From a phage, in the sequence record PQ478073.1: a DNA stretch of 64,000 nucleotides, one strand, 5' to 3'. Under the pieces are notes generated by a model. It saw only the letters and a list, made by a program, of their open reading frames with translations. It did not search any database and had not been told where the DNA came from. The position numbers and the translations under genes are program-made. Each line of letters begins with the position of its first letter. The stretch's first letter is position 1. This document shows, in pieces, positions 8,435 to 54,751 of the stretch.

Positions 8435-8460
8435 GACATACCATAAGTTTATGATATAAT
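8432..8460 (+). promoter_or_regulatory. sigma70-like promoter TGAGAC-17-TATAAT with TGn extension
   Basis: same -35/-10 pair as at 22284; faces the ORF-free region. Confidence 0.45.
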
Positions 8461-8464
8461 GTAA

Positions 8465-8497
8465 GGTGACAGCAGAATATGTTGTCGCCTTTTTTTT
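8465..8497 (+). terminator. rho-independent terminator
   Basis: 9-bp stem with G-U pairs then 8-T run. Confidence 0.6.
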
Positions 8498-8498
8498 A

Positions 8499-9034
8499 AT
8501 CCTGAAAGGTTCCATATGGAAATGATTAAAGCCTAATCCACTCGAAAAGTAGAGGGTAGATGAGTAGTCCTTTCAGTACGAACAGCAAATGAAACCCGTT
8601 AGATGATGGCATAGTTTGAACCACTCACGGCAATGCGGCTGTATAAAGAACTCCAATAGGATAAAGAGAGTTCCTCGATAGACATATAAGGATCGCACCT
8701 TACCAATTATCTAAGGGAGATTTCATAAGAAATATGCGGTCGGAATTATACAATATAGTTGCGTCCAAATTTTGTGAAATCAAATACAAGTACTGGTCAT
8801 ATGGTATTTGTATTATGTGTCGGGATGTTTAAGACCGACGACCGTTGCTACAAGAACCGCGATAGAGAGAAACAGAGCAACCCGCTTTCGTCTCGTAAGA
8901 GAATTCGTGATATGAACTATGTGAAGGCCACCAGCGTCAAATTTTTTTGTTCTTTCCCCTGCGGGGGGATGAAATATGCTCAAGCAAACCCCGTCAATAT
9001 TAATTAAAAGAAAATAGTACTTGTAGAATTAGAC
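8499..9034 (+). other. ORF-poor, GC-richer, hairpin-rich intergenic region; candidate structured RNA or regulatory/origin region
   Basis: no RBS-supported ORF; several inverted repeats (TTCCATATGGAA, GTTGCT...AGCAAC, CCCCTGCGGGG). Confidence 0.3.
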
Positions 9035-37861: not shown

Positions 37862-39301
37862 ATGAAAAAATATACAATTGACACAAACGTACTACTATCT
37901 GACCCTAATGCATCTATTGCTTTTGATGGTGCTGCAATCATTCTACCATTTACAGTACTGGAAGAATTAGATTCGATTAAGAGTCGTAATGTAGATGTTT
38001 CACGCGATGCTCGTGTTGCTATTCGTAACATTGAAGCAATTATTGCAGATGCATCACATGACGAGATTAGTAGTACTGGTGTTAATATTGCTGATGTTCA
38101 TACCAATATGAATCCTGATAGCAAATTGTTTGTTATTACAAACGAAGAAGCTGAGGCACTAATTCGTACTAAAGGTACAGAAGAGAAAGTTCAAACCCTT
38201 CTCAAAAGTACTGTACCTGATGATAAAATCATTCTGGTAGCTTTAGCAACAGAATCAGTACTGGTAACTCGTGATATCAACATGCGTATCAAAGCACTAA
38301 GTTATGGTGTCGAGGTACAAGATTATCGCCATGATATTGTTATTGGTGATAGTGATTTGATTCACATTGGTCAACACCATCTGGAAATCAATTTTTGGGA
38401 AGTATACAGCAACTTAACCAATACTAATATTCAATCCGAACAAGTTGGTCGTCGTTTGTATCATTACATTTCTAAAAGCTTGATTGAACATCTGCTTCCA
38501 CAAAATCTATGCATCGGTGATTATCTATATGATGATGCTGACGTATTATTTGTGTACGAAGGACAATCAGCAATTGAGGAAGATGATGGAACACTAACAC
38601 CAGAAGATATTTTGGTATTCCAAGACATTGGACAATCAGTGGCTTTACGTGCTAAAGTATGGGATATTAAAGCAAAGAATATCCAACAAGCACTCGCCAT
38701 CAACAGTATTCTCGATCCTGATGTACATCTAACAGTACTACTAGGTTCTGCTGGTACTGGTAAAACACTAATTACAATTGCTACTGCATTAGAATTAGTA
38801 CTGGAAAAACGTAAATACGACCGAATCATCTTCTCTAAAACTCAAGACTCACAGTTTGAAGATATTGGTTTCTTGCCAGGTTCAGAAGCAGAAAAAGTGA
38901 TTCCATTCTGTGGAGCCGCGATTGATGCGTTAGAGTTTCTTCATAAAGATGATGCAAACCCACAAGGTAGTATTGAAGAGATTATGAAACGTAATGTTAT
39001 TCAATTTAAAGCACTAAACTTTGTACGTGGACGTTCATTCACCAACACTATTCTAGTAGTTGATGAATTCCAAAACATTACACCTGCACAAGCAAAAACC
39101 ATCTTGACACGAGCAGGGTTAAACTGTAAAGTAGTAATTATGGGTAACTTGAGTCAGATTGACAGTAAGTTTATTAGTCCTGTTAACAGTGGTTTGACAT
39201 ATGTAACTGAGAAGTTTAAAGACTGGGCAGGTTGTCGTGTCATCGAACTAGAAGGTGTTGTTCGTTCACCACTGGCTGAATTTGCTGAAGAAAATATGTA
39301 A
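37862..39301 (+). CDS. phoH: PhoH-family ATPase with N-terminal PIN domain
   Basis: Walker A LLGSAGTGKT; PIN-like acidic N-terminus (DTN ... EELD). Confidence 0.85.
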   Translation: MKKYTIDTNVLLSDPNASIAFDGAAIILPFTVLEELDSIKSRNVDVSRDARVAIRNIEAIIADASHDEISSTGVNIADVHTNMNPDSKLFVITNEEAEALIRTKGTEEKVQTLLKSTVPDDKIILVALATESVLVTRDINMRIKALSYGVEVQDYRHDIVIGDSDLIHIGQHHLEINFWEVYSNLTNTNIQSEQVGRRLYHYISKSLIEHLLPQNLCIGDYLYDDADVLFVYEGQSAIEEDDGTLTPEDILVFQDIGQSVALRAKVWDIKAKNIQQALAINSILDPDVHLTVLLGSAGTGKTLITIATALELVLEKRKYDRIIFSKTQDSQFEDIGFLPGSEAEKVIPFCGAAIDALEFLHKDDANPQGSIEEIMKRNVIQFKALNFVRGRSFTNTILVVDEFQNITPAQAKTILTRAGLNCKVVIMGNLSQIDSKFISPVNSGLTYVTEKFKDWAGCRVIELEGVVRSPLAEFAEENM

Positions 39302-39305
39302 TATT

Positions 39306-39328
39306 GTATGGGACATTATGTCCCATAC
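39306..39328 (+). repeat. perfect inverted repeat (hairpin) overlapping a promoter -35
   Basis: GTATGGGACAT / ATGTCCCATAC; no T-run. Confidence 0.45.
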
Positions 39329-39338
39329 ATGATATAAT
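39310..39338 (+). promoter_or_regulatory. sigma70-like promoter GGGACA-17-TATAAT with TGn extension
   Basis: about 30 nt upstream of gene at 39370. Confidence 0.5.
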
Positions 39339-39369
39339 GTTGTTATCATAATACAGAAGGAGATATAAA

Positions 39370-39558
39370 ATGGCTAAACAACCTAAGAAACAAGAACCAG
39401 TAGCAAAAGTTAAGAAAGAGAAAGTTATTCAATCCAAAGAACAACGTATGTACGAACAACGTAAGAGTGAAACCCTATCCGGTCTACAAGCTCTACGCAA
39501 GCAAGGTGTACTAACTCGTGCACAGTACCGTGAACTAGTAGCTCAGAAAGGTTTTTGA
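39370..39558 (+). CDS. small Lys-rich basic protein in its own transcription unit
   Basis: ORF track; GAAGGAG RBS; promoter upstream, terminator downstream. Confidence 0.6.
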   Translation: MAKQPKKQEPVAKVKKEKVIQSKEQRMYEQRKSETLSGLQALRKQGVLTRAQYRELVAQKGF

Positions 39559-39663
39559 TTCATTTGAAGCAATATTGTGGAGTTCTTAATAAATACTTTT
39601 ATAAGAATAATAATACTTTTTATTAAATTAAAAAGAACTCCATGTGTTATTTCAGTTTTTCGT

Positions 39664-39690
39664 CCCTGTCTTTTGGCAGGGATTTTTTAT
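39664..39690 (+). terminator. rho-independent terminator
   Basis: stem CCCTG/CAGGG then ATTTTTTAT. Confidence 0.65.
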
Positions 39691-39784
39691 ATCTATATCT
39701 TGACAAAAGGAACAAATCATGAGAACATGTATTAAAGGAAGAATGACTTTCCATTAGGTTATTTTAACTTAAAGGAGATTTCAT

Positions 39785-40342
39785 ATGTTTTTTGACCAAA
39801 CATTTACGTTGTATCACGATTCTGGTAAAGTTGAGATTATTGATAATCTGTTAGAGTACATTGCGGAACATGACGGTATAGACCGTTTCCACAGTAAGAT
39901 GAAATTCGATTTAGCTGAATTCAACAAAAAGAATCGTGAAACATTTTGGAAGAACCGTTTCTATTACGAAATGTTTCCAGAAAAGTTTGTGGGTTATTAT
40001 CTTTGTACTGAAAAAGGATTACTTGTATCTCCTGATTTACTTATGGGTGAATACATGATACTCTATAATGAGTACTGGGAACATAAACGTAAAGCTCGTG
40101 ATACGGAATGGCGACATAAGCGTTCGTATATGTACAAACATAACCACTCCCGATACAAGCGTCCTAAGACTCAACAAGAGCGTCGTATGGCTTGTGCAGT
40201 ACTGAAGGATGAGGGGGAACCTGATATACGTGGAAGACGTAAGATGCGTTCATTACCATCGTATTGGGACGATATCAGAACAAGACATAGTACTGGCTGG
40301 AAATACAGTACAAAACGTAAACATCAATACAAAGGGAGCTAA
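39785..40342 (+). CDS. hypothetical protein with very basic C-terminal half
   Basis: ORF track; AAGGAG RBS. Confidence 0.6.
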   Translation: MFFDQTFTLYHDSGKVEIIDNLLEYIAEHDGIDRFHSKMKFDLAEFNKKNRETFWKNRFYYEMFPEKFVGYYLCTEKGLLVSPDLLMGEYMILYNEYWEHKRKARDTEWRHKRSYMYKHNHSRYKRPKTQQERRMACAVLKDEGEPDIRGRRKMRSLPSYWDDIRTRHSTGWKYSTKRKHQYKGS

Positions 40343-48595: not shown

Positions 48596-48642
48596 ATGTA
48601 TATAAATACATTAACTAATATCTAATTTATAAGGGATATATA

Positions 48643-54684: not shown

Positions 54685-54690
54685 ATTTAA

Positions 54691-54719
54691 AGCTCGTCTA
54701 TTGACGGGCTTTTCTTTTA
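54691..54719 (+). terminator. rho-independent terminator overlapping the next promoter
   Basis: stem AGCTCGTC/GACGGGCT then T-run. Confidence 0.6.
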
Positions 54720-54729
54720 TGTGTATAAT
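54701..54729 (+). promoter_or_regulatory. sigma70 consensus-like promoter TTGACG-17-TATAAT
   Basis: near-consensus hexamers about 25 nt upstream of RBS. Confidence 0.6.
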
Positions 54730-54751
54730 TGAATAAAAATAGGAGGAAATT

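Follow-up and report, generated by a model that had tools for sequence, protein, structure and literature searches.

Genes and Features of the Locus

The 64,000-nt stretch of phage DNA analysed here (sequence record PQ478073.1; the whole stretch is referred to as the window) contains a small gene for a basic protein of 62 aa, which is preceded by a perfect inverted repeat with a predicted promoter and followed by a long AT-rich inverted repeat and a terminator (Table 1). The window is 98-100% identical to Asteriusvirus jumbo coliphages (121Q, PBECO4, G17, phAPEC6, and others), which assigns it to the 121Q/PBECO4 type. An initial annotation had read this layout as an isolated and separately controlled transcription unit. 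Comparison with related phages leads us, with modest confidence, to favour a conserved two-layer expression cassette of the RaK2-like jumbo phages, composed of a protein gene and an RNA module in its 3' flank. The core of the protein is related to the SHOCT domain, and the RNA module is retained in some relatives from which the protein gene has been lost.

Table 1. Features of the small-gene locus and its immediate neighbours, in window coordinates.
Feature	Position	Strand	Basis or detail
PIN-PhoH ATPase gene, upstream neighbour	37862..39301	+	Pfam PhoH 7e-44, PIN_4 8e-20
Perfect 11-bp hairpin, loop TTA	39305..39329	+	Arms TGTATGGGACA (39305-39315) and TGTCCCATACA (39319-39329)
Predicted promoter: TGGGACA box, TG (39330-39331), TATAAT (39333-39338)	39309..39338	+	10/12 plus extended -10
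Shine-Dalgarno sequence AAGGAG, 7 nt ahead of ATG	39357..39362	+	Read from sequence
Gene for the 62-aa basic protein	39370..39558	+	Translation MAKQPKKQEPVAKVKKEK...QKGF; dN/dS ~0.1
Long imperfect AT-rich RNA hairpin, 3' untranslated region	39564..39655	+	Outer stem ~39564-39574 with 39645-39655; AU-rich loop
Inner perfect stem GGAGTTCTT/AAGAACTCC	39579-39587 / 39633-39641	+	Fold
ATAAATA box, predicted T4-type late promoter within the hairpin	39589..39595	+	AATAAATAC at 39588-39596
Predicted nested late RNA, ~88 nt	39601..39688	+	Inferred from late box and terminator
Invariant block ACTCCATGTGTT (ACTCCATGTTGTT in other genera), 3' arm of stems	39637..39648	+	Alignment A1
Intrinsic terminator: 9-bp stem, 4-nt loop, T6	39662..39688	+	Stem-loop 39662-39682, T-run 39683-39688
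185-aa gene, phrog_12793, downstream neighbour	39785-40342	+	PHROGs match

The 62-aa Protein and Its Family

The small gene is real, as the initial annotation had proposed. Among seven Asteriusvirus variants, the ratio of nonsynonymous to synonymous substitution rates (dN/dS) was 0.07-0.26 in 20 of the 21 pairs at dS of 0.35-0.9, which indicates purifying selection; the outlier was the near-identical pair EcMJ/TH47, with 9 substitutions only. The open reading frame (ORF) corresponds to 121Q gp481, G17_00444, and phAPEC6 gp340c and is labelled 'hypothetical protein' in every annotation; the protein is identical in 121Q and PBECO4. It has a mass of 7.2 kDa, an isoelectric point (pI) of 10.3, and 16 Lys and Arg residues against 6 Glu and no Asp. 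The sole placement in PHROGs is phrog_24119 (function unknown), while NCBIfam contained no match for the window protein and Pfam returned nothing above its cut-off. A homolog search, suggested at the time of the initial annotation, confined the family to RaK2-like jumbo phages, with 66 clusters that come without exception from phage contigs (typically ~350 kb), and an exhaustive hidden Markov model (HMM) search of 1.84e9 representatives produced only 19 matches.

Outside Asteriusvirus, the protein has 80-98 aa owing to an extra C-terminal segment (GVKGxP..TYEV.K.G.KKV...K..QW.RI), which forms a beta-hairpin in an AlphaFold2 (AF2) model. Asteriusvirus proteins of the EcMJ type end with KGYWSI at the stop codon, a remnant of the terminal ...QWxRI of the longer homologs, and in the window a TGG-to-TGA change ends the protein three codons before the KGYWSI-type end. 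The window protein belongs to the 80-98-aa family in a form shortened at its C-terminus. The AF2 model calculated from a 57-sequence alignment (mean predicted local distance difference test score, pLDDT, of 79) consists of a disordered Lys-rich tail (residues 1-22), a helix (23-45), a turn at Gly-46, and a second helix (50-60), with pLDDT >90 in the two helices.

The helical core resembles SHOCT. Pfam SHOCT (PF09851) matches residues 36-58 at 15.6 bits (E = 0.013), which is below the gathering cut-off of 27 bits, and 35 of the 57 family members match the same model, every one under the cut-off (best E 1.6e-4). In the reverse direction, the family HMM retrieved from 1.84e9 proteins those with 3-5 bona fide SHOCT repeats at E 1e-7 to 1e-3, and these multi-SHOCT proteins are recognized by Pfam SHOCT at E 1e-17 to 1e-22. 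Alignment of the family with SHOCT by hhalign gave a probability of 95.5% (E = 1.5e-8), although this reciprocity test is partly circular because the SHOCT repeats used were those first retrieved by the family profile. Shared features are a two-helix hairpin of ~28 aa, the invariant turn Gly (Gly-46), the pattern L..L..L...G.L....[FY], which aligns without gaps, and the reciprocal profile similarity; in addition, the short-form phage protein carries its hairpin at the C-terminus, as in SHOCT (Eberhardt et al. 2013, PMC3581485).

The family departs from SHOCT in its charge. SHOCT has a strongly conserved glutamate in the second helix (PMC3581485), whereas the family motif is G[VI]LTRxQ[FY]R, in which the corresponding position is Gln or Ala, and residues Arg-43, Arg-50, and Arg-54 are invariant. 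Because the conserved Glu is absent and invariant Arg residues are found instead, the core can be described as a basic, Arg-rich SHOCT variant; the phage hairpin has a basic rather than an acidic face, and it makes up nearly the entire protein rather than the tail of a larger one. The profile comparisons nevertheless show the core to be homologous to SHOCT. The SHOCT-like family is restricted to phages, and the window protein adds a new, truncated member to it.

The initial annotation had also suggested a small basic protein that possibly binds nucleic acids or ribosomes. Its basic nature is evident from the composition, and nucleic-acid binding is the most reasonable guess for its role, with RNA as the better guess for the ligand; the only ribosome-related signal was a marginal similarity to the C-terminal helices of eL19 (E = 0.05). 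Those who described SHOCT discussed both oligomerization, to which their own experiment gave no support, and nucleic-acid binding (PMC3581485). The basic, family-specific protein offers a possible nucleic-acid-binding context for a fold without an established function.

A Conserved RNA Module in the 3' Flank

The long AT-rich inverted repeat that had been described as bracketing the gene is present together with its terminator. It is more than a boundary and belongs to an independently conserved RNA module that probably includes a late promoter. The segment 39556-39692 folds with a minimum free energy of -36.8 kcal/mol (z = -5.4), and none of 200 shuffled sequences folded as well. The sequence from the stop codon to the terminator is kept across genera in which the proteins are just ~35-45% identical; carriers include the phages Hallingskeid (Erwinia), Munch (Salmonella), EJP2 (Escherichia), BF (Serratia), fHe-Yen9-04 (Yersinia), and XaC1 (Xanthomonas), and further copies were found in IMG/VR and metagenome contigs. 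In RaK2 and Muenster, the position of the module is taken by a simple hairpin and a terminator alone.

Alignment A1 revealed three invariant blocks, ATAAATA, A.AA.AATAA, and ACTCCATGTTGTT (that is, ACTCCATGT(T)GTT), along with a stem, AAACAAC/GTTGTTT, enclosing an AU-rich loop, and the terminator. In the window, an insertion has added the inner perfect stem, and all three blocks are kept. Within Asteriusvirus, the core at 39600-39654 is almost invariant, compared with an adjacent synonymous divergence of 0.4-0.9. The 3' arm of the module stem never varies, and the 5' arm undergoes A-to-G and C-to-U changes that maintain pairing solely in the + strand RNA; because the 3' arm is invariant, the pairing support for this stem is of the wobble type only. 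The stem of XaC1 is composed differently (GAAGAACAA/TTGTTCTTC).

A covariance model (R1) built without Asteriusvirus sequences identified the window copy (39559-39687) as the best match in the 64 kb, at 29.9 bits; the EcMJ copy scored 37.6 bits, and nine metagenome copies were found at 1e-9 to 1e-14. Rfam 15 gave no gathering-level match in the whole window, and in the region and six relatives it gave only sub-threshold matches at chance level.

In at least 11 contigs, the small ORF has been deleted. What these contigs keep is the promoter (TTGAAACA...TGGTATAAT), the 3'-terminal ~20 nt of the gene, and the module with its terminator, that is, a free-standing promoter followed by an RNA of ~125 nt and a terminator. 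Because the module survives deletion of the ORF, selection on the RNA is independent of the protein. The module is a candidate for a new phage RNA family, either a 3'-embedded small RNA or a leader-attenuator, which is conserved better than the surrounding proteins and persists when its host gene is lost.

A Predicted Late-Promoter Box and a Predicted Nested RNA

The first invariant block, ATAAATA, is identical to the T4-like late-promoter consensus proposed for phages CBB and GAP32 (PMC5259590). This heptamer is avoided in the window, where both strands together contain 6 copies versus 45 +/- 6 expected, a depletion of ~7-fold. The three copies on the + strand (39589, 48602, and 58027) are all intergenic, and those at 48602 and 58027 each follow a terminator hairpin directly and precede the start codon of a large gene by ~40 nt. 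In 117 kb of related loci, of which those from IMG/VR had been retrieved with a pattern that did not include the heptamer, it was counted 17 times in the forward direction, with 15 of these copies belonging to the module, and once in reverse, versus ~48 expected per strand. The box of the module is invariant in all relatives and agrees with the T4 consensus TATAAATA at 7 of 8 positions (AATAAATA). This avoidance lends sequence support to the late-promoter assignment made for CBB and could be used to annotate late genes and late promoters across the phage group.

Because the box is depleted, intergenic, and similar to the late consensus, we infer a nested late RNA that would start near 39601 and end at the terminator shared with the longer mRNA. 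The predicted transcript has an A-rich 5' part (AUAAGAAUAAUAAUA), followed by the exposed invariant block and the terminator. When such short RNAs were folded, four of the five centroid structures retained no hairpin but that of the terminator, and most of the invariant block stayed unpaired, except in Munch, where part of it pairs. In the fold of the longer mRNA, the same block is sequestered by pairing. At the sequence level, features reminiscent of an Hfq-type small RNA are the U6-tailed terminator and the U/A-rich stretch ahead of it, AAUAAUAA (A-R-N-like) repeats, and the block exposed in the predicted short form.

Enterobacterial small RNAs such as MicL and DapZ occupy the 3' ends of protein genes, where each has an internal promoter and shares the terminator of the gene. 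The phage module is similar in that a promoter box is found in or behind the coding unit and the short RNA would share the intrinsic terminator of the mRNA, and in having a conserved single-stranded block ahead of the terminator hairpin, A/U-rich flanks, and a U-tail. It differs in that its promoter would be of the late type (ATAAATA) and its block is sequestered in the longer mRNA. Furthermore, the parental gene is deleted in some phage relatives, which leaves the RNA alone, and the phage RNA is a prediction from sequence.

A more speculative proposal, which we hold to be rather doubtful at present, is that the 3' flank represents an undescribed small RNA of RaK2-like jumbo phages, conserved across genera and with an embedded late promoter. 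Its seed, ACUCCAUGU(U)GUU, would be accessible in the short late form alone and hidden in the early or middle mRNA, and it might target host or phage transcripts in trans, possibly via Hfq; the SHOCT-like protein would have been its original RNA-binding partner and become dispensable in some lineages. If true, the nested late RNA would be a case of temporal unmasking of a regulatory RNA by promoter choice. Simple searches of the window for complementary sequences gave counts at chance level. A candidate target of the invariant block in the leader hairpin of the ACP-like gene at 61556 was rejected, as its duplex (-19.9 kcal/mol), the best in the window, was not significant (p of about 0.065) and the complementarity is not kept in A4.

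The Terminator and Transcription into the Downstream Genes

The terminator hairpin has five G-C pairs among its nine (dG -15.2). Four pairs have changed on both sides across genera, a compensatory pattern reached by none of 500 shuffles, and other groups have annotated the terminator in G17 and UE-S1 as well. A G+C-rich stem-loop with compensatory changes and a following U-run is what is expected of an intrinsic terminator, and we take it to be one on these sequence features. No promoter of the three classes discussed in the following section is present between the end of the terminator (39688) and the next Shine-Dalgarno (SD) sequence, AAGGA at 39707-39711, and for this reason the downstream genes must rely on read-through. 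The terminator is thus probably leaky and would serve as an attenuator for the downstream genes, setting the amount of transcription that continues. The TTGACA at 39700-39705 was considered as a promoter of the next genes and rejected; it has no acceptable -10 box at 16-18 nt, and the start would land in the micro-ORF described below. More likely, it is part of the SD context of that micro-ORF.

In A4 and other genera, a gene of ~240 aa begins 12-20 nt behind the same terminator. This gene (Munch gp150, A4_477) had no match in PHROG or NCBIfam and gave only a weak hint of a Pol-beta nucleotidyltransferase (E = 0.1); it has been lost from the window. In 11 of 15 relatives, the 5' arm of the terminator has its complement in a segment immediately behind the stop codon (shuffle fraction <= 0.02), with pairings that vary by lineage (GGGCUUA/UAAGCCC, UGGCCU/AGGCCA, or CGGC/GCCG). 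This complementarity is the signature of a putative antiterminator. The window and A4 lack it, as there the corresponding duplex does not outperform shuffled sequences (fractions of 0.41 and 0.69, respectively). The relatives are reminiscent of attenuators of the trp-leader type, with a promoter, a structured leader of ~125 nt, a terminator, and a gene in this order, and a pairing that competes with the terminator. Unlike such attenuators, the phage module has no conserved leader peptide, the window has no alternative pairing, and the Rfam scores are sub-threshold.

A micro-ORF of 12 codons (MRTCIKGRMTFH and a stop codon; 39719-39757) precedes the phrog_12793 gene, which starts at 39785. A small hairpin (39755-39771) and the SD of the main gene (39775-39780) lie between them, and the stop codon of the micro-ORF is in the 5' arm of this hairpin, just upstream of the SD. 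The C-terminus (K/R)GRMTFH and the stop codon are kept in RaK2, Munch, and A4, and the changes within Asteriusvirus are synonymous (e.g., AGA to CGT in ph0011). The micro-ORF looks like a conserved leader peptide or a device for translational coupling.

The Upstream Hairpin and the Predicted Promoter of the Small Gene

The perfect 11-bp inverted repeat and the predicted promoter, like the other features described in the initial annotation, were located by it to within 1-2 nt. The repeat begins shortly after the PIN-PhoH gene, whose stop codon is 3 nt upstream of it, and would form an RNA hairpin of -16.5 kcal/mol. Perfect hairpin repeats of at least 11 bp were found at 2 loci in the 64 kb versus 0.5 expected from Markov simulations. 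In UE-S1, ph0011, EcMJ, and TH47, the arms are kept and the loops vary, and one A-to-G change leaves a G.U pair; the 3' arm lies in the spacer of the promoter, where conservation would otherwise be unexpected. The stem is followed by UGAUAUAAUGUUGUU and not by the U-tract of an intrinsic terminator. Because a U-tract is missing, the hairpin would at best terminate the PhoH transcript weakly or stabilize its 3' end, and RNA polymerase coming from the PhoH gene probably passes it; relatives have true terminators behind their PhoH gene. A probable role in the window is that of a 3' hairpin or weak terminator of the PhoH transcript.

These findings bear on the independence of the gene. The claim of an isolated transcription unit cannot be upheld, given an upstream hairpin without a U-tract and the lack of a promoter between the terminator and the next SD. 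Separate control is correct to the extent that the gene has a promoter-like site of its own, a strong SD, and a terminator, but the unit is probably leaky on either side.

The 5' arm of the hairpin contains the -35-like box of the promoter. With GGGACA at 39310-39315 and a spacer of 17 nt to TATAAT, the site has the sequence elements of a sigma-70 extended -10 promoter and is a predicted promoter from which transcription would start near 39345. A scan of 7 kb returned 39 promoter-like sites versus 34.5 by chance, and consensus terminator matches in the neighbourhood were likewise not in excess; because promoter-like sites are no more frequent than chance, support for the promoter must be comparative. 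The architecture TGrrACr-N15-TGATATAAT (here TGGGACA-N15-TGATATAAT) occurs at ~7 sites in the window, and promoters of the same class stand ahead of the ortholog in Hallingskeid, Munch, EJP2, BF, and Yen9-04. The orthologs of RaK2 (locus L004, 2390-2430) and A4 (locus L033, 30-112) have the canonical, perfect TTGACA-17-TATAAT instead. Because the orthologs switch promoter class in this way, the gene may be either early or middle.

A 'divergent RpoD-like' promoter class with a TGAAACG -35 box has been described for CBB and GAP32 (PMC5259590). The window contains counterparts of all three classes proposed for these phages (PMC5259590), namely TTGACA/TATAAT, a divergent -35 box (TGrrACr) with a good -10 box, and ATAAATA. 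The likeness is at the level of motifs only, the starts in the window phage are predicted, and the orthologs of the small gene switch class.

A short inverted repeat overlaps the -35 box in Hallingskeid (TTTGGG/CCCAAA), EJP2 (ATTGAG/CTCAAT), and Munch (GTTGGG/CTCAAC), and it could conceivably function as an operator. In A4, a 9-bp inverted repeat (TGTGTTCAT/ATGAACACA) flanks the -10 box of the small-gene promoter.

A Proposed Two-Layer Cassette and Its Alternatives

The arrangement that we favour, with a confidence somewhat above an even chance, would operate as follows. In the first layer, the TGrrACr-N15-TGATATAAT promoter, whose -35-like box is part of the hairpin at the 3' end of the PhoH gene, would act together with the strong SD to drive synthesis of the 62-aa protein. 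In the second layer, the 3' untranslated region of this mRNA would fold into the long hairpin and hold the invariant 12-13-nt block, ACUCCAUGU(U)GUU, in paired form. Late in infection, the ATAAATA box would yield the nested RNA of ~90 nt, which would use the same terminator and present the invariant block as a single strand; this RNA might act in trans as a small RNA or serve as a late leader. The leaky terminator would govern transcription into the downstream genes.

Several points weigh against this interpretation. The protein scores under the Pfam cut-off for SHOCT and has no counterpart of the conserved Glu, and SHOCT itself is without an established function (PMC3581485). The protein was not detected among the 62 virion proteins of phAPEC6, which counts solely against a structural role. 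For the RNA, the module stem has no double-sided covariation, as its 3' arm is invariant, and the window copy reaches only 29.9 bits (E about 0.02) with the covariance model. The late box AATAAATA departs from the T4 consensus in missing its first T, a search of all start regions of the window returned no target for the invariant block, and literature searches gave no transcriptomics, transcript maps, or small-RNA work on Asteriusvirus or RaK2-like phages.

A serious rival, possible although on balance improbable, is that the module acts in cis only, as a transcription attenuator or a leader controlling how much read-through reaches the downstream genes, with no trans-acting small RNA involved. 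In relatives, the post-stop segment would pair with the 5' arm of the terminator, and ribosomes ending the small ORF or a bound factor would decide the outcome. The relatives fit this well, since their downstream gene follows the terminator closely without an intervening promoter, the complementarity between the 5' flank and the terminator arm exceeds that of shuffles in most of them, and the weak sub-threshold Rfam matches are to leader-type models. The window and A4 do not show the antiterminator complementarity, yet their loop and 3' block are near-invariant; in the window, the gene behind the terminator is gone as well. A purely structural role would also leave the invariant primary sequence and the ATAAATA box unexplained. 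Cis attenuation is thus to be taken seriously for the relatives and does not account for the strong conservation in Asteriusvirus. We consider it unlikely that the conserved blocks work at the DNA level only, as a late promoter for the downstream genes and a regulator site formed by the inverted repeat, with a functionless RNA hairpin. The depletion of ATAAATA and its location at promoter positions would agree with such a role, as would the inverted repeats over the -35 box of the gene's promoter in several genera. However, the A-to-G and C-to-U changes in the 5' arm preserve pairing in the + strand RNA only and are mismatches in the DNA or in the other strand; a terminator separates the box from the next gene; and the invariant ACTCCATGTTGTT, found 40-50 nt farther downstream than the box, is beyond any known determinant of late promoters.

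The simpler view implied by the initial annotation, namely a self-contained monocistronic unit with high expression of a protein that binds nucleic acids or ribosomes, and with repeats that are only terminators or insulators, seems to us improbable to a similar degree. The gene does have a predicted promoter, a strong SD, and a terminator, and the protein is basic and has a marginal eL19-like match, but the conservation of the module goes well beyond the needs of a terminator and the module outlasts deletion of the gene. The missing U-tract of the upstream hairpin and the dependence of the downstream genes, which have no promoter of their own, also argue against such a unit. Hardly any weight can be given to a protein-coding 3' flank. 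Some GenBank records, such as E9.1 (CDS0241), annotate a 52-aa coding sequence or membrane protein across the module, the terminator, and the SD of the micro-ORF, and an ATG (39642) lies within the invariant block. The 52-aa ORF (39577-39735) is, however, broken by frameshifting indels in A4 (+4 nt) and ph0011 (-1 nt), and its GTG start is CTG in EcMJ/TH47. Peptides starting at the invariant ATG range from 3 to >100 aa, with only MLF or MCYFS in common, and their frames are not kept.

Neighbouring Genes and Similar Arrangements in the Window

In a crude map of 107 ORFs, all but two genes of the window are on the + strand. No tRNA or tmRNA was found in the window. The PIN-PhoH ortholog of phAPEC6, gp341c, is a virion protein (8 peptides, 31% coverage; PMC7247149), an association that is unusual for a PhoH-like ATPase. 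In Munch (locus L008, 1075-1305), a protein of 76 aa with a sub-threshold match to Lar (restriction alleviation; Pfam E = 1e-4) is encoded between PhoH and the small gene and has no counterpart in the window. Most genes of RaK2-like jumbo phages are uncharacterised, and in phAPEC6, 83% of the gene products are of unknown function (PMC7247149).

Hairpins that overlap or closely follow promoters were observed elsewhere in the window. At 54685-54751, a terminator hairpin (GCTCGTC TATT GACGGGC TTTT) provides with its 3' arm the -35 box TTGACG, followed after 17 nt by TGTGTATAAT; this overlap of hairpin and -35 box is the same arrangement as that at 39305-39338. Strong promoters at 8440-8500 (TGAGACA...TGATATAAT) and 61482-61555 (TTGACA-17-TGTATAAT) have a G+C-rich hairpin with T7-8 within ~10 nt, ahead of the SD of the next gene, and form promoter-proximal, terminator-like leaders. 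Behind the one at 8461-8497, ~300 nt contain no obvious ORF, and the leader at 61510-61540 is kept in A4 and ph0011.

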